From Candidatus Levyibacteriota bacterium (GTDB lineage Bacteria; Patescibacteriota; Microgenomatia; Levybacterales; UBA12049), in assembly GCA_016199085.1 (NCBI GenBank), contig JACQHJ010000002.1, forward strand, positions 31,000 through 94,999: 64,000 nucleotides of DNA, given 5' to 3'. The number at the start of each line of letters is the position of its first letter. The stretch's first letter is position 1. Positions 3,373 through 54,131 of this stretch are shown piece after piece. The translations under genes and the position numbers were made by a program. A model generated the notes under the pieces. That model was given only the letters and a program-made list of their open reading frames with translations. It searched no databases and was not told the DNA's origin.

Positions 3373-3373
3373 G

Positions 3374-4265: not shown

Positions 4266-4940
4266 ATGAAAATGAAGATAATAAAAGTAAAAGATGCTGG
4301 TGAAGGAGTAGATAAGGCGAAAAGTTTTATCTACAAATACTCCAATAGTCAAACCGCTTTATTTCTCTCAGGCGGTTTGACCCCAAAAGCCCTGTATCAA
4401 ACTCTTTCCACTGATAAAAAACTAAAGGCCGGAGCAGTTGCGGTTGTAGATGAAAGATTTGGGTTACCATTCCATGACAACTCAAATGAAAAAATGATCA
4501 AAGACTCACATCTTTTTGAATATCTTAAATCGACAAACACTTTGGTATTTACGGTTTTAAACGGAAAGGATATTGATAATACTACGAAAGATTATGAAAA
4601 AATCATCTCAAGGTTGTTTAAATCTTACAAACAAAAAATTGCTATCCTGGGAATTGGGGAGGACGGACATACGGCGGGTATTCCTAAAGGATACTACAAT
4701 TCAAATGAGTTGGTAATAAAAATAGATGATTTTCCCTCGGAGTTTAGGAAGCGTATTACTTTAACCTTTAAAGCACTAGAACAGATGGATAGGTTAATCG
4801 TTTTGGTTTTTGGTGAAAATAAAAAAAAGGTTTTAAATGAAATGTTTAAGAAGGGTTTACTTGAAGAACTTCCTGCAAGATTTTATTTACAGAAGGAAAT
4901 TTCTCAAAAGACTATTTTAATTACAGACCAGGCAGTTTAA
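4266..4940 (+). CDS. pgl: 6-phosphogluconolactonase
   Basis: Glucosamine-6-P isomerase/6PGL family motif ILGIGEDGHTAG; lies next to zwf and gnd. Confidence 0.7.
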   Translation: MKMKIIKVKDAGEGVDKAKSFIYKYSNSQTALFLSGGLTPKALYQTLSTDKKLKAGAVAVVDERFGLPFHDNSNEKMIKDSHLFEYLKSTNTLVFTVLNGKDIDNTTKDYEKIISRLFKSYKQKIAILGIGEDGHTAGIPKGYYNSNELVIKIDDFPSEFRKRITLTFKALEQMDRLIVLVFGENKKKVLNEMFKKGLLEELPARFYLQKEISQKTILITDQAV

Positions 4941-8356: not shown

Positions 8357-9153
8357 ATGTTGTAGCCTTCTATATGTTCGGACCCCGGATGGTAAATACC
8401 TGAAGTTGTTCTTCCCGGACTCTCTCTGATTGTTTCCGTTAATTGAATAAGCTTTCCTGCAGGAACCTCGAGTCCAAACATTTGTAATGGTCCAATTGAT
8501 GCCCCTCCCTTAAAATGTCTTTGCCAAAGTTGATATTCCTGTACCCACACAGAGCCTAATTCAAATTTTCGCGCAGCAGCTTCCATTCTCTCTAATCTTT
8601 GGGTAAAAGCTACGGGTACATTGAGCTGGGCGTGAACAACTCTAAATAAAGCATAAGGAAGAAAGTAAGTTGGTTCTTGTTCCCATTGTCTTATACGCGT
8701 TGCTACCTTTTCGCCCTTAGGTGGATCAAAAAGGTCATCTTCTAAGGAATAGGGGGTTTGAATGAGTCCAGCTTTATTCTTTCCTCTCAAAATTATCTTT
8801 GTTCCCTCATGGTTTACTTCAATCCCGCTTCCCGAAAGAGGGAGTCTTAGAACTGGCATACCTTTTATCCCGAGGTCTTCGAGATTTCCCATAGCTGCTA
8901 CAGTATCTAGATATATCTGATCGCGTGTTATTCCCAAAAATGCTGCAAGCTTAAGTATTCGCTCTCCGTAAATATAAAACATTTCCTCTTCTATTTTTGC
9001 AAGTCGATTAGGGGGAAGTCCCAGTTCGGGACCGTTTCTTATCCTTTCTCTCCTTGTCGCATATTGTCGGATATATTTTAAATATTCTTTTCGTTTTCTT
9101 AAGGCAAAAAGCTCGAAAGCTGCCGGAGCTCCTCTTTGATCTTCAAGTGTCAA
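8353..9153 (-). CDS. Hypothetical protein, compositionally atypical
   Basis: 266-aa ORF overlapping the gnd stop by 4 nt, opposite strand; Arg/Glu/Leu/Gln-rich; no known motif. Confidence 0.4.
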   Translation of the reverse strand: MTLEDQRGAPAAFELFALRKRKEYLKYIRQYATRRERIRNGPELGLPPNRLAKIEEEMFYIYGERILKLAAFLGITRDQIYLDTVAAMGNLEDLGIKGMPVLRLPLSGSGIEVNHEGTKIILRGKNKAGLIQTPYSLEDDLFDPPKGEKVATRIRQWEQEPTYFLPYALFRVVHAQLNVPVAFTQRLERMEAAARKFELGSVWVQEYQLWQRHFKGGASIGPLQMFGLEVPAGKLIQLTETIRESPGRTTSGIYHPGSEHIEGYNI

Positions 9154-9251
9154 TTTATCCTCCCTTTATATATAAAACGAATATATACAAAAATGCCTAC
9201 ATTTTAAAAAACAGTTTTATTTATACTAGAATTAAAATATAATAATAAAAC

Positions 9252-9575
9252 ATGAATGTAAACATTGATGATTTTAAAAAGATTGAGATAAGAATTGGTA
9301 AAGTTTTAGCCTGTGAGAAAGTCGAGAATGCAGATAAACTCCTAAGACTGCAAGTTGATTTCGGAGATTTTAAACGTCAGATTATTTCTGGCATTGCGCA
9401 GTGGTACGAAGCAAAAGATCTAGAGGGAAAACTTCTTCCTTTCATTGTTAATTTAGAGCCAAGAAATTTTAGGGGAGAAGAGAGTAAGGGAATGTTAATG
9501 GCAGCTGAAGGCGAAGACGAACCGGTTCTTCTTGAGCCATCTAAAGAAATAAAGGTGGGGAGTCTGGTTGTTTAA
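9252..9575 (+). CDS. tRNA-binding domain protein (CsaA/Trbp111/EMAP-II-like OB fold)
   Basis: 107 aa; FKKIEIRIGKVLACEKVENADKLLRLQVDFGD and GMLMAAEGED closely match the tRNA-binding OB-fold domain. Confidence 0.7.
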   Translation: MNVNIDDFKKIEIRIGKVLACEKVENADKLLRLQVDFGDFKRQIISGIAQWYEAKDLEGKLLPFIVNLEPRNFRGEESKGMLMAAEGEDEPVLLEPSKEIKVGSLVV

Positions 9576-9578
9576 ACA

Positions 9579-10112
9579 TTAAAGTTTTGTGTTATCAGTT
9601 TGTTCTTCTTTAGTAAAAATTCCCAACGAATTGCCACAAAATTTGTGAAAGTGTAATTCTATTAAGGTTTTGCCTATCTTTTCTTTCCACCAGACATGAA
9701 ATCCTTTTCTCTGTTCATCAAGAGGGTCAATATCCAAATCTTGTCCGCACTCATCACAGATAAATGTTTTAAGTTTTGGTTCTTCATAATCTGGCCAGGA
9801 GGAAACAATCTCTTTAAATCTTTGTATTGTCTTTTCGGAAAATTTATATTCGTTGCCAAAAGTATTTCTGTCTACCAATTCTTTCTTTGACTGATCAATT
9901 TTAATAACCCCTTTTTTAAACTGGGTTTCACAGGCATCGTTGCATATGTGGATAGGTAATTTATAATCTCCTGAATTTAACCAGTGGTACCAGGCCTCAT
10001 TTTTATATTCCTGGCAGTTTGCACATCGAAAGCCTCTGTATTCGGGAGATTCACTGGGGCACCAAGTCCCCACTATTTCTAAAAGAAGTTGTTGCTCTTT
10101 ATTTTTATCCAT
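9579..10112 (-). CDS. Cys-rich hypothetical protein (possible zinc-ribbon protein)
   Basis: 177 aa with several CxxC pairs (CANCQ, CNDAC, CDEC); host-like Lys-rich composition. Confidence 0.45.
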   Translation of the reverse strand: MDKNKEQQLLLEIVGTWCPSESPEYRGFRCANCQEYKNEAWYHWLNSGDYKLPIHICNDACETQFKKGVIKIDQSKKELVDRNTFGNEYKFSEKTIQRFKEIVSSWPDYEEPKLKTFICDECGQDLDIDPLDEQRKGFHVWWKEKIGKTLIELHFHKFCGNSLGIFTKEEQTDNTKL

Positions 10113-10148
10113 AAGAGTACATAGATATTCTATCAGATTTTATAAAAC

Positions 10149-10442
10149 TTAATGAATAGCTCTAATTCTTCTTGCTGTTCTTAATGCGCCAGCTAATGTC
10201 CTAATGAGACTTTTTCCTTTTACGGGATCTTCTCGTCTTTTTTGTTTAACTTGATTAAGAAAGTCTCTTGTATAAATAATGCATCTATCGGGAAATTCCA
10301 ATCTATATGACATAGCAGTGTCATAAGTTACTATAAAAGCTGCCATAAACAGGGAATGGCCTCTTTTTTGTTCTTTGGGCAATATTATTTCCTCTTCGTA
10401 ATTGCTCCTTCTTGCAATTTGTTGTTTTTCATGATTTTGCAT
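10149..10442 (-). CDS. Hypothetical small protein (Arg-rich), uncertain
   Basis: 97-aa ORF divergent from proS; no motif; could be a spurious frame in the proS upstream region. Confidence 0.2.
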   Translation of the reverse strand: MQNHEKQQIARRSNYEEEIILPKEQKRGHSLFMAAFIVTYDTAMSYRLEFPDRCIIYTRDFLNQVKQKRREDPVKGKSLIRTLAGALRTARRIRAIH

Positions 10443-10490
10443 AAGAGGAGAGTATACAACAACTTAATAAAAAATGTTATACTCAAACTC

Positions 10491-11720
10491 ATGAGGTACT
10501 CGGGTCTTTTTCCAAAAACTTTAAAGACAGCTCCAAGCGGGGCAGAGTCTCTAAATCACAAATTATTAGTTAGAGCAGGATACATTGATCAGTTAATGGC
10601 AGGCTCTTTTACGTTACTTCCCTTAGGTTTTAGGGTTGTAGAAAAGATTAAAGAAATCATAAGGGAAGAATTAAATAAAACTGGAGCCCAAGAGCTTTTA
10701 ATGCCCCTACTTCATCCAAGAGATATCTGGGATCAAAGCGGAAGATGGTCCAAGCCTGAAGTAAGAAAGATAATGTATCAGTTCAAGGATATTCATGATA
10801 AAGAGTTCGGACTCTCTTTTACCCATGAAGAAATAGTTATGGACCTTCTTTCTAAGTTTATACAAAGCTATAAGGATTTACCCGTAAAGGTTTATCATTT
10901 TTCAACCAAATTCAGAAACGAACCAAGAGCCAAGTCTGGGATTTTAAGAGGCAGGGAATTTATGATGAAAGATTTATACAGCGCCCATACCACAGAAGAG
11001 GATATGTATTTGTATTACAACCAGATAAAAGATATCTATCCAAAGATTTTTAAAAGAATTGGACTTGAGGTAAAAGTCGTTGAGGCTAGTGGGGGCGTAT
11101 TTACGCCTTCCCACAGCCACGAATTCCAGGTTTTATGTAGAGTTGGAGAAGATACGATCTTTTACTGTGATAAATGTGATTTTGCCCAAAATAAAGAAAT
11201 TTTTCAAGGACAAGAGGGGAGTAAATGCCCAAACTGCGATGGAAAAATACTTACCGCAAAATCCATTGAAGTTGGCAATATCTTTCCTTTGGGTACGGAT
11301 TTTTCAATAAATCAGAAAGTTTTCTATACAGATGCCAATGGCAAACAAAACCCAATCTGGTTTGCAAGCTACGGCATCGGTCCAACAAGGGTTTTGGGTA
11401 CACTGGCTGAGGTTTTTAATGATGAAAATGGTCTTATTTTTCCCAAATCGGTCGCCCCGTTTGATGTCCACTTAATTAGTCTATCTAAAACCGAAGAAGC
11501 CAAAAAAATCGAGGAAGAACTTGAAAAAAACGGATTTGAAGTTCTATATGATGATAGGGAAGTAACGGCGGGAGAGAAATTTGCCACGGCAGATTTGATT
11601 GGAATTCCGGTAAGACTGGTTGTTAGCGAGAAAACCGGCGGGAAAATTGAATTTAAACAAAGAAATAAAAAGGAAAGCCAGCTTTTAACTTTAGAAGAAG
11701 TTTTGGAGAAATTAAAATAA
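10491..11720 (+). CDS. proS: Prolyl-tRNA synthetase (short form)
   Basis: N-terminus MRYSGLFPKTLKTAPSGAESLNHKLLVRAGYIDQLMAGSFTLLPLG aligns with the ProRS N-terminus, class II motifs FRNEPR, GILRGREFMMKD; start moved to ATG 10491 from the track's 10356. Confidence 0.8.
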   Translation: MRYSGLFPKTLKTAPSGAESLNHKLLVRAGYIDQLMAGSFTLLPLGFRVVEKIKEIIREELNKTGAQELLMPLLHPRDIWDQSGRWSKPEVRKIMYQFKDIHDKEFGLSFTHEEIVMDLLSKFIQSYKDLPVKVYHFSTKFRNEPRAKSGILRGREFMMKDLYSAHTTEEDMYLYYNQIKDIYPKIFKRIGLEVKVVEASGGVFTPSHSHEFQVLCRVGEDTIFYCDKCDFAQNKEIFQGQEGSKCPNCDGKILTAKSIEVGNIFPLGTDFSINQKVFYTDANGKQNPIWFASYGIGPTRVLGTLAEVFNDENGLIFPKSVAPFDVHLISLSKTEEAKKIEEELEKNGFEVLYDDREVTAGEKFATADLIGIPVRLVVSEKTGGKIEFKQRNKKESQLLTLEEVLEKLK

Positions 11721-39270: not shown

Positions 39271-39903
39271 ATGCGCCTTATGAGGAAAACTAAAACCGAA
39301 AAGGGAAGAAAAGCAATTATTAATTTCTTATTTGAAGTTGGAGCTCTCTCCAAAACTCCAAGATCAGCCTTCTACTTTCTCGGAAGCGGTGGCCAATCGG
39401 TATCAGAACACATTACAAGAACTGCATATATAGGTTATGTCCTTTCTATTTTAGATGGAAAAGTAGACGGCGCTAAAATAATGCAAATGTGTCTTCTGCA
39501 CGATCTTGCTGAAACAAGAACTTCTGATTTAAATTATGTCCACCAAAAATACACAATATCTGATGAGTATAAAGCAATAGAAGATTTGGCAGCTACTCTT
39601 CCTTTTGGAGAAAAAATTTTAAAAACCCTCAAAGAATATGCTGCAAGAAAATCAAGGGAGGCAATTCTTGCAAAGGAAGCAGATCGTCTGGAATGGATAT
39701 TGACCCTAAAAGAACAGGTTGATGTCGGAAATACAAGGGCAAAAACCTGGATTCCCTCTGGTGTTAAACGGCTTGAAACAAAAATAGGCAAAGAGCTTGC
39801 CAAAGTAATTGTAAAAACTAATTCGGATGACTGGTGGTTTTCAAATAAAAAAGATAGTTGGTGGGTAACAAGAAACAAAGATATCCTCAAGAAGAGATTT
39901 TAA
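39271..39903 (+). CDS. HD-domain hydrolase, YfbR-like 5'-deoxynucleotidase
   Basis: SVSEHITRTAYIG (His of HD), LLHDLAETRTSDL (HD), EYKAIE match E. coli YfbR motifs ENVSEHS / YHDASE / EYKAIE. Confidence 0.65.
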   Translation: MRLMRKTKTEKGRKAIINFLFEVGALSKTPRSAFYFLGSGGQSVSEHITRTAYIGYVLSILDGKVDGAKIMQMCLLHDLAETRTSDLNYVHQKYTISDEYKAIEDLAATLPFGEKILKTLKEYAARKSREAILAKEADRLEWILTLKEQVDVGNTRAKTWIPSGVKRLETKIGKELAKVIVKTNSDDWWFSNKKDSWWVTRNKDILKKRF

Positions 39904-39912
39904 ATTAATTTA

Positions 39913-40308
39913 ATGAATAAATATCAAAAAATAGTTAAAAAATTTGAAAAAGATAGGAATTGGGGACAGTTTCATAATCCTAAAGATTTACTCTTGGGAA
40001 TAGTTGAGGAGGTAGGAGAGCTAAGAAACATTGTTAAGTGGGAACAGGATCCTGAAGTCTTAAAGAAAACACTTATTAAAAATAAAGACGAGGTTGCCGA
40101 TGGTATAGGAGATATTTTTTTCCTTTTAGCGCATTTGGCAAACAGTAGCGGTGTCGATATAGATAAGGCTGTTGCAACAACAATTAAAGATTTAAGAAAA
40201 CGATTTCCGGTCAAGGATTTTAAAGATAATCATGGTAATCGGTATATTGAAGGTAAAGATAAGAAAGATGGAGTAAAGAAATCCAGAAACTTCAAAAAAC
40301 GCTCCTAA
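39913..40308 (+). CDS. MazG-like nucleoside triphosphate pyrophosphohydrolase
   Basis: EEVGELRN and EVADGIGDIFF metal-binding EExxE/D motifs of the MazG/NTP-PPase fold; 10 nt after the HD gene. Confidence 0.65.
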   Translation: MNKYQKIVKKFEKDRNWGQFHNPKDLLLGIVEEVGELRNIVKWEQDPEVLKKTLIKNKDEVADGIGDIFFLLAHLANSSGVDIDKAVATTIKDLRKRFPVKDFKDNHGNRYIEGKDKKDGVKKSRNFKKRS

Positions 40309-42930: not shown

Positions 42931-44028
42931 ATGTTAGGGATTGGAATTGTCGGTCTTCCAAATGTTGGAAAATCAACGCTTTTTAACGCGCTTTTGAAAA
43001 AACAGCAGGCTTTGGCTGCAAACTATCCCTTTGCCACAATTGAGCCAAACATAGGAGTTGTTGCTGTCCCTGATGAAAGACTAACCAAGCTTGCCGAAAT
43101 AACAAGTAAAGAGGAGAAAATGGCAAGTCTTCCCCCCATTAAGCCGGCTACTGTTGAATTTGTCGATATTGCAGGACTTGTTAAGGGAGCCAGTGAGGGA
43201 GCAGGACTTGGCAACAAATTCCTTTCTCACATAAGAGAGGTTTCGGTCATAGCCCACGTTGTAAGAAGTTTTGAAGACGATAATGTCATAAAAGAAGGAG
43301 CAGTTGATCCAAAATCAGACTTTGAAACAATTAGAACCGAACTTCAGATTGCAGACTTACAAACTCTGCAAAATCTCAATGAAAAAGCCTTAAGAACAGA
43401 TCCTGTTAAAAAATCCGTCGTCGAAAAACTAAAGGCAGTTTTAAATGAAGGAAAAAATGCATTTGAAATAAAGCTTTCCGAGGAAGAAAGTATTTCAATT
43501 AAGGAATTAAGTCTTTTAACTGCAAAAAAAGAAATTGTTGTTTTAAATATTTCAGAAGGGGATTATAATCCCGAGTCAATTGCAAACATTGTTAGTAAAT
43601 ACTCGGACCTTCTTAAAATTGATGGTGAAAAACTTGTCGTAATCTGTGCAAAAATAGAATCTGATTTAGCATCGCTTTCCGAGGATGAACAGAAAGAATA
43701 CTTAAAAAGCTTAGGAATTGATAAGTCAGGTCTTGAAAGACTCATTCAAAAAGCATACCTAGAACTTGGTCTTATTTCTTTTTTAACAGCCGGAGTTAAG
43801 GAGGTAAGGGCATGGACAATTAAAAAAGGTTTTACAGCTTCCTTGGCAAGCGGAGAAATTCATACGGATTTTATGAAGAAATTTATAAAAGCAGAGGCCG
43901 TATCCTTTGAAAATTTTGTAGAGTATGGTGGATGGAAAGGCGCAAGGGAGAAGGGAAAAGCAAGGCTTGAGGGAAGGGATTATATTGTTAATGATGGAGA
44001 TATTATTGAGTTTAAGATAGGGACTTGA
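42931..44028 (+). CDS. ychF: Ribosome-binding ATPase YchF
   Basis: [18 protein letters not shown]-loop, TGS-type C-terminal domain, 365 aa. Confidence 0.85.
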
Positions 44029-44066: not shown

Positions 44067-45479
44067 ATGTTAGGTGAATATCGACCAGCTACTATTCCGC
44101 GACCGGAAATTCTAAGAAGAGTTGATTTAGAAGATAGGCTGGCAAAAAGAGTTTTCATTACCGGGGCATATATGCAAACTCCATTTGGGGGATTAAGAAG
44201 CACGCTAGATGCAAGATTAAGGGGAGAATCTGCTGTAGTTTCATTTCCTGATACTGGAATTGATGATGTAAGTGTTGCTGCTCCTTTAAATTTCAATGCT
44301 AGAGAACATCTAGATTTAGGAAGAGAAGATAAATGGTATTCGGAACTTGCAGTTTTGGAACTATATGTAATTACTCAGGCTCTTGGTAGTGCTTCTATGT
44401 TGGATGAGAATGGAAGACTAGACGTAACACGATTAAATGCATATAAAGGTGGTCTTTTTGGTAATTCAGGAATAGGTCAGGCATTAGGCCTTGTAGATAT
44501 ACACGATATGATTAAGCTGAACAATGATCTAAGAAGACAGTTGGCTAGTGGAGAAATTGATAGAGCAACGTTTTTAGAACGACGAGCGGTTATTAAGGGA
44601 TCAGATGCTTTTCGGGCCTTTCCAGACCAAGGTAATTCAAGGACAGCTGAATATCATAAGCTTATGGGGAAAGGAAATTATGCTTCACAGGCTTGTGCAT
44701 CAGGTCAAGCTGCAGTAGTTGATGCATACGAAAGCATAAAAAGCGGAAAAAACCGTTGGGCAATAGCTGGAGGAATTGAAAGATCCCTAACCCATCCTGA
44801 ATTATCTTTTGCCTCATTTGATATCTTGCATTCATTGTCGCATAATCCCGATCCTCAAAGCGCAAGTAGACCGCTTGATAGAAATAGAGATGGTTTTATT
44901 ATTGGTGAAGGAGCAGGATACTTAATCTTAGAAAGTGAGGATCAGGCTTTGGAAAGAGGAGCAACGATACTTGCAGAGATCACTGGGGGAGAAAACGTAA
45001 TGGACGGATTCAAGAAAACAGAGGCAAATCCAGACAGAATTGCTATGGCCATAGGAAAGACATGTGAGGTAGGAGCAGAAGAGGCAACGGAGGAAACTCC
45101 AGAAGGAGATATTGTTTTTCCAGACGTTGCTTATTTACATTTAACGTCAACTGAGCTTGGAGATAGAGTAGAGATAGAAGCAATAAGAAAAGTTTGGGGA
45201 GAATATACCAGATATATTCCTTTAGTAGGCAATAAGTCTGCTTTTGGCCACGCACTTGGAGCAGCAGGGGCAATTAATACTATTGAGGCAGTTTATGGAA
45301 TTATTGACGGAGTTGTTGCTCCGACCATACATCTTAGGGAAAGAGGAGAAGAATTTGAGGACTTAGATGTTGTAGAAACAGCAAGAAGGATTAATCCTCA
45401 GACCGCGCTAGTTACAGCTAATGGATTTGGCGGTTGGACCTCTGCCCTTCTTTTAAAAAAGTTTGATCCAGCAGCTTAG
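44067..45479 (+). CDS. Beta-ketoacyl synthase (FabF/FabB-like KAS), compositionally atypical
   Basis: RVFITGAYMQTPFGG N-terminus, active-site Cys QACASGQAAV, His motifs LHLTSTELGD and NKSAFGHALGAAGA, C-terminal NGFGGWTSALLLKK; insertions relative to about 410-aa FabF. Confidence 0.6.
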   Translation: MLGEYRPATIPRPEILRRVDLEDRLAKRVFITGAYMQTPFGGLRSTLDARLRGESAVVSFPDTGIDDVSVAAPLNFNAREHLDLGREDKWYSELAVLELYVITQALGSASMLDENGRLDVTRLNAYKGGLFGNSGIGQALGLVDIHDMIKLNNDLRRQLASGEIDRATFLERRAVIKGSDAFRAFPDQGNSRTAEYHKLMGKGNYASQACASGQAAVVDAYESIKSGKNRWAIAGGIERSLTHPELSFASFDILHSLSHNPDPQSASRPLDRNRDGFIIGEGAGYLILESEDQALERGATILAEITGGENVMDGFKKTEANPDRIAMAIGKTCEVGAEEATEETPEGDIVFPDVAYLHLTSTELGDRVEIEAIRKVWGEYTRYIPLVGNKSAFGHALGAAGAINTIEAVYGIIDGVVAPTIHLRERGEEFEDLDVVETARRINPQTALVTANGFGGWTSALLLKKFDPAA

Positions 45480-45569: not shown

Positions 45570-46307
45570 CTATTTTGTTCTAGCAGCTTCCAGAAGTGTA
45601 TTTTTCCATCCTCCGATAAATTGATCTCCTGGGCAAGTAGTTTTCGGATTAATTTCTCTATGCCCAAAGATTCTCCCTAAAGAAACAAAGGGGTAATTTT
45701 GTTTAATAATATCAACAACTGCATTTATTTGATTGTCTTGCGGACTTTTATGCTTATAATCTCCTGCTAAAACTATGGCAACGCTTCTTGTATTAATATC
45801 CCAGTCGCCGGACTGCCAACCGATATATTTGTCTTCCAAAAGTCTTTTATTCTTTCCGTTTGGAAAAACAATATGGTGATACGCAAAAAATACCATTTTT
45901 CCGTTCCTGAAATGACCCGACCAGACTGGCTGTCCTTTTACATTATTTCCGTTAACCTCTCCTTTTAGATAGTTACTTCCATATTGCCTAATAAATCCTA
46001 TTGCCGAAAGCTTATCTAATTTCATATGCGGATCTTCATCGCTATGATGAATGACAATAGTGTCAATGGGTTTTCTTTCCTTATCAAAATTAGGACCCTC
46101 TTTGGCTAGGGAAATAAGGTTTTCTTCAAGCATTTGGGTTACGAGATCATAAAATATATGCCTTTCTGTTTTAATTTCAGGATTATCTTCTATGGGGAAA
46201 ACTTTTGTGTTCAAAAAATCAGAAAGCCTTATGTACCAATTGGGATATTGAAGCTGTTTTCTAAATAAGTCCAAATCAAAGCTTGATTTATCATTTGCTA
46301 GTCCCAT
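45570..46307 (-). CDS. N-acetylmuramoyl-L-alanine amidase (Amidase_2/PGRP domain)
   Basis: IVIHHS, GWQSGDWDINTRSVAIVLAGDY, GHREI...TCPG zinc-amidase motifs; start set to internal Met at 46307 (track ORF extends to 46499 through a low-complexity frame). Confidence 0.6.
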   Translation of the reverse strand: MGLANDKSSFDLDLFRKQLQYPNWYIRLSDFLNTKVFPIEDNPEIKTERHIFYDLVTQMLEENLISLAKEGPNFDKERKPIDTIVIHHSDEDPHMKLDKLSAIGFIRQYGSNYLKGEVNGNNVKGQPVWSGHFRNGKMVFFAYHHIVFPNGKNKRLLEDKYIGWQSGDWDINTRSVAIVLAGDYKHKSPQDNQINAVVDIIKQNYPFVSLGRIFGHREINPKTTCPGDQFIGGWKNTLLEAARTK

Positions 46308-46341
46308 ATAATTACTATATCGCAAGAGAAAGATTAATGTA

Positions 46342-47340
46342 ATGGCAGAAGTAAAGCAAGTCTCAGACAATATAGAAGCCAAAATAACTGCAAGAAAAGA
46401 AAGAATAACCCAAGAAGTAGATAAGATTGATACGCTTTTTGAAGTAGAACATCTTCCTGGATTTGAGGATAGAGTGGGATATTTTCCAATTCTAGACAAT
46501 TTGGCAGGAAGGCCTGTCTTAGCCAGGTTTTCATATGGTAAAAACGCCCCAAATATGTCTGCAAAATTTTTTGATAATAATAAAGGCGAAAGCGAAGTAA
46601 CAAATGAGAGAAATAGACGTGAATTCTTAGAACAATTGGGTTTTCCAAACTACCCATTTGTTTTACAAACGGTCGGAGCATTTGAAGGAGCAGAGCCACA
46701 GATAGAAGAAGTAAATGTGGATACGTTGAAAGATAAAACAAAAGTCGTTGGAAATATAGTTTTTACAAGAGATCCCGAACTTACTCTGGACATTATTCCC
46801 GCAGATTGTCCAACGGGTGTTTTGTATTGCAAAGATAGTCAAGGTAATCCGATTGCAGCTATCCTTCACGGAGGAGCGGATGCTCTTAATGCAGGAATGA
46901 TAAGGCAAGGTTTATGGGTCTTGCGAGATGAATACGGAGTTGATTTAAGTCAAGCCGTGCTTGGTATAGCTCCAGGAGTTTTAGCAAAAAACTATTTTAT
47001 AACTAATGAGCCTGAACGAAGAGGAAACGGCATTATTGAAAGAAACTGGGGAGATTATATAACCGAGAAGACAACAGATGATCCTTCTGAAAAAAGATAC
47101 GTGGATTTAACAAGCGCTTTTGTGATGCAGGCTCTGGAAGCAGGACTTAATACTGATAATATTCAGACATACGGTGGAGTAGACACTTATCAGGACGCTT
47201 CTGACGAAAAAGCATATTCAAGAAGGTATTATAATGAACATGATAAAAAAAGACCTGGAGGCCAAATTTTAGCAGTTCGCCTAAATCCAGATGCCGTAAA
47301 TAAAAGCTCAGGGCTATATAGTTTGCCCCAAGCAGCTTGA
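46342..47340 (+). CDS. YfiH/PgeF-like (DUF152, laccase-domain purine nucleoside phosphorylase / peptidoglycan editing factor) homolog, compositionally atypical
   Basis: PADCPTGVLYC (YfiH TADCLPV), AAILHGGADAL (AAHAGWRG), C-terminal AYSRRYYNE...GGQILAVRL (FFSYRRD...GRMASFIWL); 332 aa versus about 245 aa. Confidence 0.45.
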   Translation: MAEVKQVSDNIEAKITARKERITQEVDKIDTLFEVEHLPGFEDRVGYFPILDNLAGRPVLARFSYGKNAPNMSAKFFDNNKGESEVTNERNRREFLEQLGFPNYPFVLQTVGAFEGAEPQIEEVNVDTLKDKTKVVGNIVFTRDPELTLDIIPADCPTGVLYCKDSQGNPIAAILHGGADALNAGMIRQGLWVLRDEYGVDLSQAVLGIAPGVLAKNYFITNEPERRGNGIIERNWGDYITEKTTDDPSEKRYVDLTSAFVMQALEAGLNTDNIQTYGGVDTYQDASDEKAYSRRYYNEHDKKRPGGQILAVRLNPDAVNKSSGLYSLPQAA

Positions 47341-47390
47341 GGTTTATTTCTATCTTGCTTATAACTTCATGCTTTGATAAAATTAGAGCC

Positions 47391-47660
47391 ATGAGAAATT
47401 ACCAATTGGTTTTTGTTTTGAAACCGTCACTAACGGATGCAAACAGAAAAAAGACAATAGATTTAGTCAAAGATTTTCTAAAATCTGCAAAAATTACTAA
47501 AACTGATGAAATGGGAGAAAAAGATTTAGCCTATTCCATTAAAAAAGAAGCTAAGGGAGTATATTATAATTTCCTTTTTGAAGCAGAAGATATTACAGGG
47601 CTTGATAAAAGACTTATCGGAAACGAAGACATTTTAAGATCTTTACTTATAAGAGTATAA
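47391..47660 (+). CDS. rpsF: 30S ribosomal protein S6
   Basis: MRNYQLVFVLKP...; rpsF-ssb-rpsR synteny. Confidence 0.8.
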   Translation: MRNYQLVFVLKPSLTDANRKKTIDLVKDFLKSAKITKTDEMGEKDLAYSIKKEAKGVYYNFLFEAEDITGLDKRLIGNEDILRSLLIRV

Positions 47661-47667
47661 TACAAAT

Positions 47668-48162
47668 ATGGCACGAAGTTTAAACAGAGTACAACTTATA
47701 GGAAATCTAACCAGAGATCCGGAGTTAAGATATACGCCGTCAGGGGCTGCTGTCTGCTCGTTTAGTATTGCAACAAATAGATCCTGGACAACCGATAGCG
47801 GAGAGAAAAAGGATGAGAGTGAGTTTCATCGAATCGTTGCCTGGAATAAGCTTGCCGAAATCTGTTCACAGTTTTTAACAAAAGGAAGAAAGGCATATGT
47901 TGAAGGAAGACTCTCGACCAGATCTTGGACAGGCCAAGACGGAGTCCAAAAACAGACAACCGAAATTATCATCTCAGACATGATTTTACTTGATAACAGA
48001 AGACCGGAAGGCGAGGTAACGTCTAAGCCTGCAACAGAGGAAGAAAAACCTAAAGCCAAAGAGAAGGCAAAAGAGGAAAAGAAGAAAGAATCAGCCCAAG
48101 AAACTGCAGAAGATCAAGAGCTACCTGGGGAGGATATAGCCGCAGACGATATCCCATTCTAA
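47668..48162 (+). CDS. ssb: Single-stranded DNA-binding protein
   Basis: OB fold NRVQLIGNLTRDPELRYTPSGAAV, acidic tail ending DDIPF. Confidence 0.85.
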   Translation: MARSLNRVQLIGNLTRDPELRYTPSGAAVCSFSIATNRSWTTDSGEKKDESEFHRIVAWNKLAEICSQFLTKGRKAYVEGRLSTRSWTGQDGVQKQTTEIIISDMILLDNRRPEGEVTSKPATEEEKPKAKEKAKEEKKKESAQETAEDQELPGEDIAADDIPF

Positions 48163-48174
48163 AGAAAGATATAA

Positions 48175-48426
48175 ATGGCAAAAAGAAAGAAGAAATTTTT
48201 AAAACGGTTACAAAAGACTAACGCTCCTAAGGAGTGTTATTTTTGCACTGAAAAAAAAGATCCGGATTTCCTCGATTCCCAAACTCTTAACAGATTTGTA
48301 ACAGAAAGAGGAAAGATTATCGGAAGAGTAAGAAGCGGACTTTGCACAAAACACCAGAAAAAACTTACGGTTTCTGTAAAACACGCAAGACACTTAGCCA
48401 TACTTCCTTTTGTTATAAGAGGTTAA
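48175..48426 (+). CDS. rpsR: 30S ribosomal protein S18
   Basis: CYFCTEKKDPDF...RFVTERGKIIGRVRSGLCTKHQKKL. Confidence 0.85.
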   Translation: MAKRKKKFLKRLQKTNAPKECYFCTEKKDPDFLDSQTLNRFVTERGKIIGRVRSGLCTKHQKKLTVSVKHARHLAILPFVIRG

Positions 48427-48435
48427 AAACATAAA

Positions 48436-49170
48436 ATGACTTTACTGCCAATAAGTCTAACCAAAGATTTTATCCCCATCGTAAAGATAGGTCAAAAAGT
48501 GTCAAACGGACAGACTATTGCTAGAAAAAAAGACCAAGGACAAGAAAATATTATTCACCTTAAGGATTTTTCCATTACCCCAAAAGATCTGGAAAGCTCT
48601 CTAAAAAAACATTTAGGAGACGCTGTCATGAAAGGGGAGACGGTTGCTATAAAGAAAAAACTCTTCGGAGGCAAAAAGATACTAAGTGAGGTTGACGGAA
48701 CGATCTCAAAAATTGACGACCAGACCTGCGACGTCTATATCCAAACAGCAAAAAGTGCAAAAGAGGAAACAATAATTTCTCCAGTTGAAGGAACGGTTGA
48801 TTTTTGCAATAATGGACGAATCGTCTTAAAAACAACCAAGACGGTAGTAGCTGCAAAAGATGCTTTTGGTTGGGATGCAACAGGGGAGTTGGTTTTTATA
48901 AAACCTCCCGTAAAGCTTTCCGAAGATATCGAAGGGAAAATCATTGCAGTAGATAAAGCCGACAAGCTTTTGCTTTATAAGGCAATCGGCCTTTCGGCAA
49001 TCGGAATTATCACAAGCGATTTGGAAGAAGTAGATTTTATTGATTTCGAAGAAAGAAAAATAAACGCAGCGATAATGCTTTTAGAAAGACAAGAATTTGA
49101 AAAGCTTGAGAAAATAAATGGTAAAAAAATCCTTTGTGATGTTGAGGGAAAAGCAATAATAATTTTATGA
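48436..49170 (+). CDS. Hypothetical protein
   Basis: 244-aa ORF, host-like composition, overlaps the ctpA start by 4 nt; no motif. Confidence 0.45.
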   Translation: MTLLPISLTKDFIPIVKIGQKVSNGQTIARKKDQGQENIIHLKDFSITPKDLESSLKKHLGDAVMKGETVAIKKKLFGGKKILSEVDGTISKIDDQTCDVYIQTAKSAKEETIISPVEGTVDFCNNGRIVLKTTKTVVAAKDAFGWDATGELVFIKPPVKLSEDIEGKIIAVDKADKLLLYKAIGLSAIGIITSDLEEVDFIDFEERKINAAIMLLERQEFEKLEKINGKKILCDVEGKAIIIL

Positions 49171-50450
49171 AAAGAACAAAAATACTACAAATACTTTTAG
49201 GCTTATTTATAGCTTTTATTTTTGGTTACTATTTTGGCGTCAATAAAGTAACGGTTGACTGGAAAGCGTATAAGCCAAATATCAATATCGTCAGCAAAGA
49301 GCCGCCAAGTGGGATTACAAACATCAACTTCACTCCTTTTTGGACTGTCTGGGAAAAACTTATGGTCAGCTACTATGATAAATCCAAACTTGACCAGCAG
49401 AAAATGCTAAACGGCGCAATTTCTGGAATGGTATCTAGCATAGGCGATCCTTTCACTTTGTATCTTCCACCTATACAAAATAATGATTTCAAAGAAGGTC
49501 TTGCCGGACAGTTCTCAGGCATTGGAGCAGAGCTTGGGACTAAAGATCAGGATATAATTGTCATTTCCCCCTTAGATGGAAGTCCCGCCGAGAAAGCAGG
49601 CATAAAAGCAGGGGATACTATTGTATCTGTTGACGGCCAGAGCACTTCAGGCTGGAACATCTCCCAGGCTGTTGAAAAAATAAGGGGTCCAAAGGGAACA
49701 CAAGTAGCTCTAGGGATTGTTAGAAAAGACGCGACAAAGAAAATTGACTTAAAAATAACCAGAGACATCATCAACGTTAAAAGTGTTGCTATGGAGGTAA
49801 GAACTGCCAATTGTAATGACAAGGAATGTAAGATTACTCCCAAAGCCGAAACTTGTAAGGGGCAAGGATGTACCAGTTTTGTCTATATCAGGCTTTCCCA
49901 GTTTGGCGATAATACCAATCAGGAATGGCTTGGTCTTGTGGGAAGTATTTCCTCCAAGGTTAAAAATGACAAAAATATCAAGGGAATAGTGTTTGATCTT
50001 CGTAACAACCCAGGAGGATATTTAACAGATGCAGCCTTTATTGCTTCTGAATTTTTGGATAAAGGAAAAGCAGTAGTATCCCAGGATAACGGAATAACGG
50101 ATAGATCAACGATGTATGCAACAAGAGAAGGTTTGTTTACGAAAGACAAAATAATTGTCCTAATCAACAAAGGAAGCGCTTCTGCCTCTGAAATAGTCGC
50201 AGGGGCTCTAAGAGACAATAAGAGAGCAACTCTGGTCGGTGAGACCTCATTTGGTAAAGGAACTATTCAGACGGCTGAAGATCTAGGTGACGGAGCAGGG
50301 CTTCATGTAACCATAGCAAAATGGCTTACTCCTCTTGGAACCTGGGTTAACGGCAAAGGGTTGACCCCAGACGTTGAAGTACAATTAGATGCAAAAGATC
50401 CCTCAAGGGATACCCAACTTGAAAAAGGTATACAAGAACTGCTAGAATAG
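49167..50450 (+). CDS. ctpA: Carboxyl-terminal processing protease (S41 family)
   Basis: N-terminal TM, PDZ segment, GIVFDLRNNPGGYL and catalytic Ser/Lys region (NKGSASASEIVAGAL...K). Confidence 0.8.
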   Translation: MKRTKILQILLGLFIAFIFGYYFGVNKVTVDWKAYKPNINIVSKEPPSGITNINFTPFWTVWEKLMVSYYDKSKLDQQKMLNGAISGMVSSIGDPFTLYLPPIQNNDFKEGLAGQFSGIGAELGTKDQDIIVISPLDGSPAEKAGIKAGDTIVSVDGQSTSGWNISQAVEKIRGPKGTQVALGIVRKDATKKIDLKITRDIINVKSVAMEVRTANCNDKECKITPKAETCKGQGCTSFVYIRLSQFGDNTNQEWLGLVGSISSKVKNDKNIKGIVFDLRNNPGGYLTDAAFIASEFLDKGKAVVSQDNGITDRSTMYATREGLFTKDKIIVLINKGSASASEIVAGALRDNKRATLVGETSFGKGTIQTAEDLGDGAGLHVTIAKWLTPLGTWVNGKGLTPDVEVQLDAKDPSRDTQLEKGIQELLE

Positions 50451-50504: not shown

Positions 50505-51986
50505 ATGCCAACACCAGAGGTAAACAGGGGATCAAACTCAAGGGGACGCTCAACTGAACATGGTAGAACTGAGCTGGTAAACCAAATGTCTTTGCAGTAT
50601 AAAGTCAGACTGCTTTCAGGACAATTTGATAGCGGAATTCCCTTGGATCGAGTAGCAGCAAGAGACGGAATAAGGCGAAATAATCCAACAGAGACATACC
50701 AACGAATACATGAGAAATGGGGAGAAACAAGGCAAGCTGAATGGGCGGGAGATAGAAGAAGAGATTTCTCCGAAAGACTTACTGCTTGGGCAGGCAGCAG
50801 GGCAAGAGACTTAAAAGATCTTATAGATTCAACCAGTCCTGATGATAGCAATTTTTTCGATGGCCTGGCAACAATTAAATTTACAGGAGATCCTCAAAGT
50901 ACAACCCAAGAAGATATTGCAAGTTATTTTGCTGGAACCTTTTTCCCTGAGTTTGCGGTAAACTCTGACAGAAACGTAGAAGCTGATAAAAGCGTTGGCC
51001 ATTTAGTAGATACTTTTTATCAAGTTGCAGGACCTGATGCAGATGGAAAAATTACCCAAGCAGGAGCAGATAAGGTAATGGATCAAGTCCAGGCTCTTTA
51101 TCGGGTATTAAGGCCAATTTTTAAAGAAGAAAATTATCTAAAATTTGAGGATGTTTTACAGGCACGTTTACATGCAGGATCCGGAAGGCTTAATGAGGCT
51201 AATATAAAAAACGGAGATCCGTCGCAAAAAATGAAACAAGACCTTGGATATTTTGCACCTCAAACACTGTGGGAGGAAAGACCAAGGCCGACAGTTGCGG
51301 TAGGACGGGCTGTCAGACTTGCTGAAGCAGCCGCCGTCGCAGAGCCAACTGGACCTGCAGAAGTCGCCGCAGCGGCAGAGGTTGAGGAAGGTATTGTAGC
51401 AGTAGAGACAAACCCAGAAAATTTATTTGTAGATATAATTAAGGGTGTTGATCAAGCAAATGATGAAGCTAGTAGCGAGACAACATTAGATCTTCCGGCA
51501 GATTCTTTGCTTTCAGGCCAGGGACGTTTGCTTTCAAGGCCTGAGGGATTTATTCAGATAAAAGTAGTTGATTCAGGTGCGCTTGAGGTCGATGAAGACA
51601 ATAACATTGTAAGAACAAGACAAGCCTTACTGGATATTACCAAAGAAGGAGTGACAAGAGGGGGTATTAGGCTTGACGTTTTATTACAACAAGAAGCAGA
51701 GGGTGCACGGATACGAGGTGAGAATATTGAGGAAGATTCAACCCATCCTGACTGGAACAGGCAATTAGTTGAGGAAGTTTTTGCTACGGTTATGCCCTCA
51801 TTTAGACAAAGACTTAATCAAGACATTGTTCACATTGATCCACACTGGAGAGCAGCCAGAGTTGATCTTAACAGAGGAAGATTCAGGATAGGGTTTATTA
51901 AAGAAGATGTGGCACAAGTTCCTCCCTTGCCTTTAGAGAATGACGTTTTTCCAGGACCGGATGATGTCCCAGCAGGAACCTCTTAA
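50505..51986 (+). CDS. Hypothetical large protein, compositionally atypical, with Ala/Glu-rich linker
   Basis: 493-aa ORF between ctpA and htrA; low-complexity AVGRAVRLAEAAAVAEPTGPAEVAAAAEVEEG; weak SD GGAAAGAG; no motif. Confidence 0.4.
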   Translation: MPTPEVNRGSNSRGRSTEHGRTELVNQMSLQYKVRLLSGQFDSGIPLDRVAARDGIRRNNPTETYQRIHEKWGETRQAEWAGDRRRDFSERLTAWAGSRARDLKDLIDSTSPDDSNFFDGLATIKFTGDPQSTTQEDIASYFAGTFFPEFAVNSDRNVEADKSVGHLVDTFYQVAGPDADGKITQAGADKVMDQVQALYRVLRPIFKEENYLKFEDVLQARLHAGSGRLNEANIKNGDPSQKMKQDLGYFAPQTLWEERPRPTVAVGRAVRLAEAAAVAEPTGPAEVAAAAEVEEGIVAVETNPENLFVDIIKGVDQANDEASSETTLDLPADSLLSGQGRLLSRPEGFIQIKVVDSGALEVDEDNNIVRTRQALLDITKEGVTRGGIRLDVLLQQEAEGARIRGENIEEDSTHPDWNRQLVEEVFATVMPSFRQRLNQDIVHIDPHWRAARVDLNRGRFRIGFIKEDVAQVPPLPLENDVFPGPDDVPAGTS

Positions 51987-52021: not shown

Positions 52022-53170
52022 ATGAAAAAACTTGGAATACTTTTAATCCTTCTCATTTTTGTCCTGTTTATCTGGGTTGTATTTACAAGTACTTTCCCCA
52101 AATTTCTTTCCAGTCTAAATATTCCCCAGTCTCCAATATCAAAAGAAAGCGTAAAAGTGGTAAAAGAAGAGTCCGTTGTTATAGACGTTGTCAAAAACGT
52201 CGGTCAGTCCGTTGTTACGGTTGTTAGGATTGCTCCAGCTTCAACTAGAAACACTATCGGGTTTGGTCCATTCGGATTCTTCGAAGTACCCCAAGAAAAT
52301 CAGGAAGATCAGGTATCAAGTATAGGATCAGGTTTTATCTTAACCAGTGATGGACTCGTTGCCACAAACAAACACGTCGTCTCAGATACGGGTGTTAAAT
52401 ATCAGGTTGTGACAAGCGATAATAAGACATACGACGTTGAAAAAGTATCAAAAGATCCGCTTAATGACATAGCACTTCTTAAAATAAATCCTAATCAAAA
52501 CCCAGATAAGAAGCTGGCAAGCGTAACGCTTGGCAATTCACAAAGTCTACAGGTTGGCCAGTTTGTAATAGCCATTGGAACTGCACTTGGTGAGTTTAGA
52601 AATACTGTTACAACCGGAGTAATCTCCGGACTTGGCAGGGGAATAACAGCCGGAAGCGCTTTTGAAGGCTTTGTTGAAAAACTTGATAACGTCATCCAAA
52701 CAGACGCGGCAATTAACCCTGGCAACAGCGGAGGACCTTTGGTAAACTCCCAAGGAGAAGTAATCGGGATCAATACGGCAGTATCCCAGTCTGGTCAAAA
52801 CATCGGTTTTGCTCTGCCCATAAATGTTCTAAAAGAAGCCTTATCTAATTTTAACCAAAACGGACAGTTTAACAGACCGTATCTTGGCGTATCTTACGTT
52901 ATGCTTTCAAAACAAGAGGCTGACCTAAATGATCTAGTCGAGGGAGCATATATCCAAAGCGTAGTGAAAGGCTCTCCGGCTGATCTTTCAGGTTTACAAC
53001 CGGGAGACGTAATAACAAGTTTTGACAAAAAGAAAGTAGTAATAGGAGCAAGTGAGCTATCAAGTTTAATTGCCTCTAAAAAAGTAGGGGAAAAGACAGA
53101 TATAATAGTAGTCAGGGAGCAAAAACAGGTTACGCTTTCGGCAACTATTGGTTCCGCTCCAAGTGAGTAA
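52022..53170 (+). CDS. htrA: HtrA/DegP-family serine protease with PDZ domain
   Basis: N-terminal TM, catalytic triad context (HV, DIALLKI, GNSGGPLVN), C-terminal PDZ. Confidence 0.85.
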   Translation: MKKLGILLILLIFVLFIWVVFTSTFPKFLSSLNIPQSPISKESVKVVKEESVVIDVVKNVGQSVVTVVRIAPASTRNTIGFGPFGFFEVPQENQEDQVSSIGSGFILTSDGLVATNKHVVSDTGVKYQVVTSDNKTYDVEKVSKDPLNDIALLKINPNQNPDKKLASVTLGNSQSLQVGQFVIAIGTALGEFRNTVTTGVISGLGRGITAGSAFEGFVEKLDNVIQTDAAINPGNSGGPLVNSQGEVIGINTAVSQSGQNIGFALPINVLKEALSNFNQNGQFNRPYLGVSYVMLSKQEADLNDLVEGAYIQSVVKGSPADLSGLQPGDVITSFDKKKVVIGASELSSLIASKKVGEKTDIIVVREQKQVTLSATIGSAPSE

Positions 53171-53180
53171 AAGACAATAT

Positions 53181-54131
53181 ATGTTTGTAATACAACAAAA
53201 TATCTCCCTTAAGGACTACAGTAATTTTAAAATCGGCGGAAAAGCAAGATATTTTTTGGAAGTAAAAAGCGTAAACGATATCCTAGAAGGAGTTAGAAAG
53301 TGGAGAGAAACCGATATTGAAAGCAATTTTCAAAGAAAATATTTTGTTTTAGGAGGAGGAACTAATGTTTTATTTAATGACGCAGGCTTTGACGGTTTGG
53401 TTATCAAAAATTCCATAGACGAGATTAGAATGGAAGAGGATCTTTTGGTTGTTGGAGCTGGGGTTTTAATGTCAAAGTTATTGGACTACTGTGTAGAAAA
53501 TAGTCTTTCCGGTCTTGAGTGGGCGGGAGGCCTTCCGGGTACCGTCGGAGGAGCGGTCAGAGGCAATGCGGGAGCATACAGGGGAGAAACAAAGGACAAA
53601 ATCGTAGAAGTTGACAGCGTAAACCTCGATACCTTGGAACAGAAAACAAGAACTTATGATCAGTGCCAATTTGACTACAGAACTAGTATTTTTAAAACTA
53701 CGGCCGCAAACGAAGTCATTACTTATATAAAATTCAAATTAACCAAAGGTAAAAAGGAAGAAATAGAAAGTTTAATAGAAGACAAAAAGACAAAAAGAAA
53801 GTTAAGGCATCCTTTAGAGTATCCCAATGTAGGAAGTATATTCAAAAATGTTCCCATAGGAAAGTTTACCAAAGAACAGATAAAACAATTGTCTCAATAT
53901 GTTAAAGACGATCCTTTTGCGGTTATTCCAACCGCAAAAATTAACTTCTTAGCAGGCCTTTCGGGTAAAAGGGTAGGGGACGCCAAGCTTTCAGAGAAGC
54001 ACACCAATTTTATAGTCAACCTTGGCAATGCCAAAGCAGAAGATGTCAAAAAGTTAATTGAAATAATTATAAAAGTAGTTAGGGAAAAGTTTGGAATAGA
54101 ACTGGAACCCGAAGTAATGTTTGTTGATTAG
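53181..54131 (+). CDS. murB: UDP-N-acetylenolpyruvoylglucosamine reductase
   Basis: FAD-binding [34 protein letters not shown] motif region; start at ATG 53181. Confidence 0.8.

Follow-up and report, generated by a model that had tools for sequence, protein, structure and literature searches.

A divergent YfiH-fold protein and a neighbouring Amidase_2 amidase in a Levybacteria genome: a putative cysteine hydrolase with a remodelled active site

YfiH/PgeF has only recently been established as a proofreading amidase of peptidoglycan precursor synthesis, in a family otherwise defined by its His-Cys-His triad. In E. coli PgeF, the catalytic triad is Cys107-His124-Asp89, with His71 and His124 placed at the lactyl oxygens; Gln69 binds the Ser hydroxyl, Arg235 the free carboxylate and Trp127/Arg128 the diphosphate, while Tyr227/Arg228 contact N-acetylmuramic acid (MurNAc) and uracil, and YfiH-type enzymes are able to cleave MurNAc-monopeptides (PMC8844914). 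A 2025 PNAS study found that H71, D89, D106, C107 and H124 are each needed for editing by E. coli PgeF, that H71A and D89A abolish it, and that PgeF's nucleoside phosphorylase activity is weak, non-physiological in bacteria and independent of Cys107, His71, His124, Asp89 and Asp106 (PMC12280929). Here, we describe a distant YfiH-like gene and a divergently oriented amidase gene from a metagenome-assembled genome of Candidatus Levyibacteriota (contig JACQHJ010000002.1), a member of the candidate phyla radiation (CPR). The stretch analysed, 64,000 nucleotides in full, is referred to as the window, and about 35-57 kb of it was annotated.

Both open reading frames are present in the window, look intact and functional, and have domain assignments that are significant in Pfam. 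With moderate confidence, we read the pair as a signal-less zinc amidase and a remodelled YfiH-fold hydrolase acting on a MurNAc-peptide-type substrate, loosely paired with exchangeable hydrolases. Other loci are designated below by L numbers, and some relatives by P numbers.

The YfiH-like protein and its active site

The original prediction had placed the 332-residue product in the DUF152/YfiH family, and this is borne out. PF02578 (Cu-oxidase_4/DUF152) matches residues 82-295 (E 5.6e-12; 46 bits against a gathering threshold of 22.9), and the AlphaFold2 (AF2) model has a predicted local distance difference test (pLDDT) score of 90.9. When this model was compared with the PDB by Foldseek, the top 18 matches were all YfiH/YlmD/PgeF structures (E 1.5e-14 to 1.4e-9, target-normalised template-modelling score 0.68-0.77), with 1xfj the best at 1.5e-14. 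The protein can thus be placed securely in the DUF152 fold, with its double beta-sheet. As had been noted, it carries an ADC Cys (C156), an HGG His (H176) and a C-terminal YSRRY...G..LAV motif; the extra length, put at about 90 residues relative to YfiH, comes to 89 (E. coli YfiH has 243).

The protein is nevertheless not to be read as a PgeF/YfiH equivalog: its NCBIfam scores are 17 bits for TIGR00726 against 141.15, and 24.2 bits for NF007998 against 369. PDB sequences searched by phmmer with the protein, or by hmmsearch with a 32-sequence profile of its clade, yielded no YfiH; hence, the kinship is visible only via Pfam, fold comparison and profile-profile alignment. Its 69 close homologues are full-length, share 22 invariant columns, match either PF02578 or no domain, and come from Levybacteria or Terrybacteria wherever they are named. 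A protein in NCBI that is 100% identical to the product bears the name 'laccase domain-containing protein' and is assigned to a Candidatus Levybacteria bacterium. A profile search for relatives returned 1,583 representatives at E<=1e-3, 192 at E<=1e-10 and 52 at E<=1e-30, forming a graded series that runs from the window's clade to canonical YfiH. The protein belongs to a branch of the YfiH/PgeF (DUF152) fold that is specific to the CPR and has diverged strongly. The searchable literature on Patescibacteria and YfiH yielded no description of a CPR YfiH-like family.

To place the active-site residues, 124 bridging relatives and E. coli YfiH were aligned by MAFFT, and the clade was separately aligned by hhalign to 34 canonical-type relatives (Prob 100, E 4.9e-53); the two mappings agree. 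The bridging sequences were drawn from the representative search, as a query with E. coli YfiH gave only enterobacterial sequences at least 81% identical. Two other routes were discarded. Comparing the clade alignment by hhalign with E. coli YfiH alone gave no usable match (Prob 0.24), and a by-eye matching of QVHG to Q120-I-E-E123, which turned His71 into Glu, was overruled by MAFFT and hhalign, both of which put His71 on Phe114 and QIEEV on the next strand.

The mapping divides the PgeF active site in two (Table 1). The Asp-Cys turn, the second His and part of the C-terminal motif are kept; D155, C156 and H176 are invariant in the clade, where H176 is the sole invariant His. The His/Cys/His set whose conservation the original prediction proposed to check is thus kept only in Cys156 and His176, but not in the first His, which is Phe114 here, and Asp89 is likewise Asn138. 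No conserved His is found near Phe114 in the clade alignment. Among 140 aligned diverse relatives, Cys is present in all and His in nearly all, with only one exception to having both; the positions of His71, Asp89 and Arg235 vary, and the window's clade shows the most derived combination. Asn in place of the triad Asp would plausibly create a papain-like Cys-His-Asn arrangement. Taken together, these residues suggest a YfiH-fold cysteine hydrolase with a rebuilt substrate pocket.

The amidase and the recurring cell-wall hydrolases

The divergent gene had been assigned to the Amidase_2/PGRP zinc amidases, and the 245-residue product does match PF01510 across profile positions 2-131 of 131 (E 1.7e-13; 51.5 bits against a gathering threshold of 26). 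Its AF2 model (pLDDT 93.9, built on 41 homologues) retrieves phage endolysins, insect and mammalian PGRPs, AmpD and T7 lysozyme by Foldseek (E 9e-7 to 1e-3), with the endolysins Ts2631, Ph2119 and LysC as the best structural matches. H87, H88, Y143, H216 and C225 are invariant in the 41 homologues, and the HHS and GHR...C.PG segments align with PGRP sequences. The predicted zinc ligands are H87 or H88, H216 and C225, with Y143 as the likely catalytic Tyr. The invariance of all five argues for a zinc site of the His/His/Cys type, and the enzyme appears to be active. Its first 75 residues make up a helical domain specific to the family, with W24-Y25 invariant, for which Foldseek gave no structural match.

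The 119 homologues of the amidase, all of about 232-252 residues, are found across the CPR (Levy-, Gottesman-, Parcu-, Nomura- and Saccharibacteria). The reading frame fits this family in length and has a nearest homologue 93% identical; it is full-length and intact, and not a pseudogene fragment. Of the two start codons under consideration, ATG 46307 is right and TTG 46499 wrong, as shown by the length of the 119 homologues and by stops in three related loci. The TTG start would open a 309-residue frame (45570-46499, minus strand), which stop codons interrupt in L007, L009 and L016 and which no homologue has; its 64 extra residues contain a hydrophobic, membrane-anchor-like stretch that is spurious, because the extension is read from the strand opposite the 5' end of the YfiH-like gene. 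From the ATG, the N-terminus has no hydrophobic segment (maximum Kyte-Doolittle 19-residue mean 0.75, against 2.05 for the neighbouring membrane-anchored CtpA), in keeping with the earlier view that the amidase lacks a signal peptide. A signal-less, cytoplasmic amidase is thus predicted from hydropathy, by which the YfiH-like protein is also without a hydrophobic N-terminus. Elsewhere, the amidase family occurs alone in ordinary chromosomal contexts (L017, L018): beside an SLT lytic transglycosylase and near a glutamate racemase in L017, and near a polysaccharide deacetylase in L018. Neither AmpG nor NagZ was seen among the neighbours examined in the annotated part of the window.

The strongest functional clue comes from other genomes, in which Peptidase_M15_4 is linked to YfiH-like genes in at least five contexts. 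It lies directly upstream in L013/L030 (Terrybacteria), where the surroundings are unrelated; upstream as M15_4-DUF218 in L005 and in L029/L031/L028; in L037, between rpoD and polA, 11 bp downstream of a relative with 24% identity; and, as an in-frame C-terminal fusion, in P0049. In L029, the gene of a 487-residue M15_4-DUF218 protein takes exactly the place that the amidase has in the window, although it is read in the same direction as the YfiH-like gene (L029 and the window share 88% identity in YchF, 84% in the ketosynthase and 84% in CtpA). The M15_4 proteins inspected by eye start without a hydrophobic N-terminal stretch. CofD/YvcK-like, GlmS, GlmU-like and MurB genes are further neighbours of YfiH-like genes, with GlmS and GlmU-like genes next to the YfiH-like gene in L005. 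With Amidase_2 in five loci counted in, the recurring theme is cytoplasmic peptidoglycan chemistry, and the M15_4 linkage supports a cell-wall role with a substrate other than that of PgeF.

On the reading we favour, the amidase, being signal-less, would cleave the MurNAc-L-Ala bond in the cytoplasm. The YfiH-like protein would be a cytoplasmic cysteine amidohydrolase acting on a MurNAc-peptide-type substrate, as opposed to the uridine diphosphate (UDP)-linked UDP-MurNAc-L-Ser/Gly; this substrate would probably carry neither UDP nor a free carboxylate at position 1. It would probably work alongside the adjacent signal-less hydrolase, which is Amidase_2 here and Peptidase_M15_4, with or without DUF218, elsewhere, with muropeptides or aberrant precursors being trimmed or salvaged by the two together. 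One appealing possibility is that an M15_4-type L-Ala-D-Glu endopeptidase would leave MurNAc-L-Ala for subsequent YfiH-type cleavage, although with Arg235 lost the details would be expected to differ.

A bolder proposal is that the clade represents a functionally new DUF152-fold Cys-His-Asn amidohydrolase, which with interchangeable M15_4 and Amidase_2 hydrolases makes up a cytoplasmic route for dismantling or salvaging muropeptides. We consider this doubtful. If true, the clade would have dropped PgeF's recognition of UDP and of the free carboxylate, in bacteria that rely on other cells to supply building blocks. The swapping and loss of the YfiH-like cassette between near-identical strains, described below, may point to selection linked to the chemistry of the wall being processed, be it their own or a host's.

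Turnover of the locus and competing explanations

About 17 distinct loci encoding YfiH-like relatives were gathered for synteny comparison (a narrow-pattern scan of genome contigs gave 7 loci, and a metagenome scan 17). Levybacteria share an array of ychF, a variable slot, the YfiH-like gene, rpsF, ssb, rpsR, a gene for a 244-residue protein, ctpA and then murB, sometimes with an unknown gene and htrA between the last two. The YfiH-like gene is usually present in that array, whose ychF border was found by tblastn in L002, L003, L005, L007-L009, L011, L014, L019-L023, L027, L029 and L034. What fills the slot differs: nothing in L002, L003, L011 and L034; a divergent Amidase_2 alone in L007; a ketosynthase and a divergent Amidase_2 in the window, L016 and L020/L023; a KASIII-like enzyme with Amidase_2 in L009/L021 and alone in L008; a CofD/YvcK-like gene in L014/L032; and M15_4-DUF218 in L005, joined by a ketosynthase in L029/L031/L028.

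The head-to-head arrangement of the amidase and the YfiH-like gene, with start codons 34 bp apart, is as first described, as are the adjacent ketosynthase and rpsF just downstream. A search of related genomes for the same divergent pair found it in four other Levybacteria loci (L016, L020/L023, L007 and L009/L021), and thus in 5 of the roughly 17 distinct loci, while the amidase stands without a YfiH-like gene beside it in L017, L018 and L019. The pair is one of several interchangeable arrangements and not a fixed, co-adapted module; taken alone, the head-to-head pairing is ordinary gene-order flux. Of the small cell-wall editing or turnover module suggested in the original prediction, the link to cell-wall hydrolases is supported by recurrent M15_4 adjacency and fusion, but the pair itself is not conserved.

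The YfiH-like gene turns over as well. Compared with the near-identical strain L016 (GCA_964507975.1, CAZDRK010000020.1), the window has 62% nucleotide identity over 46362-47352 and 100% in 46262-46361 and 47367-47456, with 88-91% in the wider flanks measured. At the protein level, the ketosynthase is 100% identical, RpsF 98%, RpsR 98.5%, the 244-residue protein 96%, CtpA 95% and the amidase 93%, whereas the YfiH-like protein is only 60% identical and groups with another Levybacteria clade (77-78% identity to P0025/P0032). The YfiH-like gene has undergone whole-gene allelic replacement between the two. In L019 (GCA_964624955.1, 4911-5001), which shares 81% identity with the window in the amidase, 82% in YchF and 84% in CtpA, ychF, ketosynthase and amidase are kept, the YfiH-like gene is absent and rpsF follows 89 bp after the amidase. 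Slot and YfiH-like allele thus turn over by insertion, replacement and deletion.

These and other observations weigh against the paired-hydrolase reading. With the amidase 93% identical and its YfiH-like partner 60% identical in L016, no co-adaptation is visible, and the absence of the YfiH-like gene from the L019 locus means that it is dispensable or has moved elsewhere. At least eight loci have no adjacent hydrolase (L002, L003, L011, L008, L014, L010, L024, L025, L034). The sampled loci are phylogenetically related, so that adjacency counts overstate independence. Given that His71 and Asp89 are each essential in PgeF (PMC12280929), amidase activity on MurNAc-linked substrates cannot be assumed for a protein that has replaced both. 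Finally, purine genes flank the M15_4 and YfiH-like pair of L013 on both sides (PurD-like, GARS, 3358-4743; adenylosuccinate lyase, 9134-10549), the only purine context seen for the family.

The first alternative is that adjacency carries no functional meaning: the ychF-rpsF interval would be a hot spot of insertion and recombination, with the amidase and the YfiH-like protein engaged in unrelated processes. This accounts for the amidase adjacency and agrees with a slot whose content varies among close relatives (nothing, ketosynthase, KASIII-like, CofD-like, Amidase_2, M15_4-DUF218), with the remnant of ychF in L009, with the exchange of the ketosynthase for a 33%-identical type in L019/L020, with the YfiH-like frame swapped in L016 or absent in L019, and with toxin-antitoxin genes just past ychF in L019/L020. 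We nevertheless regard it as unlikely, since the M15_4 linkage recurs outside the slot and outside Levybacteria (L013; L037 at rpoD/polA; the P0049 fusion), and a gene fusion is hard to account for by a hot spot alone.

The second is that the YfiH-like protein is a purine nucleoside enzyme (a phosphorylase, a deaminase or a methylthioadenosine phosphorylase) serving salvage in a CPR organism unable to make purines. Such activity has been reported in vitro for FAMIN and YfiH (PMC6978800), and CPR organisms depend on salvage (bioRxiv 10.64898/2026.06.21.733656); the L013 gene lies between purine genes, and HD-domain and MazG nucleotide hydrolases are encoded a few kilobases upstream in the window. 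However, the phosphorylase activity of PgeF is weak and needs none of Cys107, His71, His124, Asp89 and Asp106 (PMC12280929), while selection here keeps exactly Cys156, His176 and Asp155 invariant; moreover, the purine context is confined to one locus, whereas cell-wall hydrolases recur. This explanation is distinctly improbable.

Is the protein then a true PgeF orthologue, editing the UDP-MurNAc-L-Ser/Gly that arises from MurC errors? Asn138, Phe114 and other arginines (such as the invariant R143/R252) would in that case replace Asp89, His71 and Arg235. The fold, the Asp-Cys turn and the His are those of PgeF, S293 and R295 match S226 and R228 of the uracil/UDP contact, MurB is encoded in the same array, and GlmS and a GlmU-like gene are adjacent in L005. 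Against this, H71A and D89A kill E. coli editing (PMC12280929) and both positions are changed here, Gln69, Arg235 and Trp127/Arg128 (PMC8844914) are Gly, Gly and Ala/Asp, the NCBIfam PgeF score is 17 bits against a cut-off of 141, and deletion in L019 and a swap in L016 are unlike a core proofreading factor. We find orthology highly doubtful.

Last, it is barely credible that the amidase is a remnant phage endolysin, T7-lysozyme-like and signal-less because holin-dependent: PHROG amidase/endolysin matches (E 1.3e-11), the top structural matches to Ts2631, Ph2119 and LysC and the lack of a signal peptide by hydropathy would suit it, but there are no phage genes around it and its flanks are housekeeping genes, it belongs to a coherent CPR family of 119 proteins of constant length with a conserved extra N-terminal domain, its L017 relative lies beside SLT and near glutamate racemase, and the GC values of the 2-kb intervals that cover the pair (0.391 and 0.366) do not fall outside those found elsewhere in the window.

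Throughout the window, GC content is 33-43%, with no compositional break at the locus. Scans for tRNA and Rfam families gave no matches in the window. A defence-island explanation was dropped, as PADLOC found nothing for the amidase, the YfiH-like protein, the ketosynthase and two unknown neighbours.

The features discussed are collected in Table 1.

Table 1. Features of the locus and active-site residues, with positions in the window
Feature	Position	Strand	Basis
ychF, conserved left border of the slot	42931..44028	+	tblastn synteny
FabF-like ketosynthase, 470 residues, first part of the variable slot	44067..45479	+	Pfam/NCBIfam
Amidase, Amidase_2 (PGRP/T7-lysozyme-type), 245 residues	45570..46307	-	Pfam PF01510, homologues, AF2, Foldseek
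Amidase, predicted catalytic/zinc residue span	45633..46049	-	invariant alignment columns
Amidase H87	46047-46049	-	
Amidase H88	46044-46046	-	
Amidase Y143	45879-45881	-	
Amidase H216	45660-45662	-	
Amidase C225	45633-45635	-	
Divergent intergenic region, 34 bp	46308..46341	.	
YfiH/PgeF-fold (PF02578/DUF152) protein, 332 residues	46342..47340	+	Pfam, AF2, Foldseek, hhalign
Block replaced relative to near-identical strain L016	46362..47352	.	nucleotide comparison
YfiH-like protein, active-site span	46681..47262	+	MAFFT and hhalign
E. coli Q69, changed to G112			
E. coli H71, changed to F114	46681-46683	+	
E. coli D89, changed to N138 (invariant in clade)	46753-46755	+	
E. coli D106-C107, kept as D155-C156	46804-46809	+	
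E. coli H124, kept as H176	46867-46869	+	
E. coli W127-R128, changed to A179-D180	46876-46881	+	
E. coli S226, kept as S293	47218-47220	+	
E. coli Y227, changed to R294			
E. coli R228, kept as R295	47224-47226	+	
E. coli G234, kept as G306			
E. coli R235, changed to G307	47260-47262	+	
rpsF, downstream of the YfiH-like gene	47391..47660		
rpsF-ssb-rpsR, gene of the 244-residue protein and ctpA, conserved right flank of the YfiH-like gene	47391..50450	+	
htrA and murB, beyond ctpA	52022-54131		

Two opposed -10-like hexamers are packed at 46307-46319 between the two genes. On the plus strand, TATAAT at 46307-46312 overlaps the amidase start codon and lies 30 nucleotides upstream of the ATG of the YfiH-like gene; on the minus strand, a TATAGT-like -10 element ends 7 nucleotides before the amidase ATG, a distance that would fit a leaderless transcript, and the amidase transcript may be leaderless. 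The sequence CATATAAT is kept in L016, L020 and L009, and L007 has TATAAA. These elements are consensus matches whose promoter function would follow from likeness, and the region has no more promoter-like sites than expected by chance (15, where shuffled sequences give 11.1 ± 3.9).

The window's ketosynthase carries ACASG, HLTST and FGHALG motifs, and its Pfam/NCBIfam matches cover residues 185-470 only; the roughly 190 N-terminal residues do not match the ketosynthase N-domain. Relatives have ketosynthases at the same place (L019 5723-7063, L020 2015-3382, L008 1111-2175, L009 5905-6963), those of L019/L020 being only 33% identical to that of the window and those of L008 and L009 being KASIII-like. 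No acyl carrier protein or other fatty-acid genes were seen near this lone ketosynthase, which is odd for CPR genomes. In L009, a 25-residue duplicate of the ychF C-terminus (7855-7929) lies between the amidase and the YfiH-like gene, a scar left when the KASIII-like gene and the amidase were inserted. Toxin-antitoxin pairs (PemK/MazE; HigB-like) are found just beyond ychF in L019 (9364-9929) and L020 (4575-5054), but not in the window, and fit a variable region.

Further out, genes for an HD-domain (YfbR-like 5'-deoxynucleotidase) protein and a MazG-like pyrophosphohydrolase lie side by side upstream (39271-40308, plus strand), and the same HD gene is upstream of ychF in L019 and L020. The gene of the 244-residue protein (48436-49170, plus strand), always between rpsR and ctpA in Levybacteria, has only a marginal match to an RnfC_N barrel-sandwich domain (26.3 bits against 25.6). 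Between ctpA and htrA, a 493-residue open reading frame (50505-51986, plus strand) has no Pfam or PADLOC match; L008 (572 residues) and L019 (488 residues) have genes without Pfam match at its position.

Comparison with known systems

E. coli YfiH/PgeF (1z9t, 7f3v, 7w1g) and Geobacillus YlmD (1t8h, 6t0y) have the DUF152 fold in common with the YfiH-like protein (Foldseek E 1e-11 to 1e-14), together with the Asp-Cys turn, the His124 equivalent, the Ser-x-Arg of the C-terminal helix, the Gly before Arg235 and the lack of a signal peptide. They differ from it in sequence, with 13-18% identity, and in lacking its N-terminal extension of about 40 residues, its insertions and its C-terminal tail. 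Relative to PgeF, His71 is Phe, Asp89 Asn, Gln69 Gly, Arg235 Gly, Trp127-Arg128 Ala-Asp and Tyr227 Arg. The C-terminal domain of human FAMIN/LACC1 resembles the protein at the level of the PF02578 family, with Cys and His conserved. FAMIN, like the window's clade, departs from PgeF in substrate-pocket residues, and it has no editing activity (PMC8844914, PMC12280929); it differs in having kept the His-Cys-His triad and in being a eukaryotic multidomain protein.

A large radiation of uncultivated lineages, with about 1,600 representative clusters within reach of a profile search, keeps only the Cys and the second His of the family's triad; the window's clade has in addition exchanged two editing-essential residues and every ligand of UDP and the carboxylate. 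Its proteins should not be given the name 'PgeF', 'purine nucleoside phosphorylase YfiH' or 'laccase'. The M15_4 linkage and fusion offer a testable lead to a second activity of the fold in CPR cell-wall metabolism.

The M15_4 partners belong to the CwlK/VanY-like Peptidase_M15_4 family, stem-peptide hydrolases that are encoded beside or fused to the YfiH-like gene in relatives, and at the amidase's position in L029. They are not found in this window, and differ from the amidase as metallopeptidases that act on peptide bonds and not on the MurNAc-L-Ala bond. The amidase has the fold, the His-His-Cys zinc ligands and the conserved Tyr of T7 lysozyme, PGRP-LB and Ts2631, and is signal-less like T7 lysozyme and phage endolysins; it stands apart by its extra N-terminal helical domain of about 75 residues, its 15-20% identity, and its chromosomal, CPR-wide occurrence. 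With AmpD it shares the Amidase_2 fold (2y28, E 1.8e-5), and the cytoplasmic location predicted for it makes a role of the recycling type plausible. The third zinc ligand of AmpD is Asp, whereas that of the amidase is predicted to be Cys. The amidase belongs to a known kind of enzyme; in the YfiH-like protein, a known fold has taken on a form specific to the CPR, with its active site remodelled.

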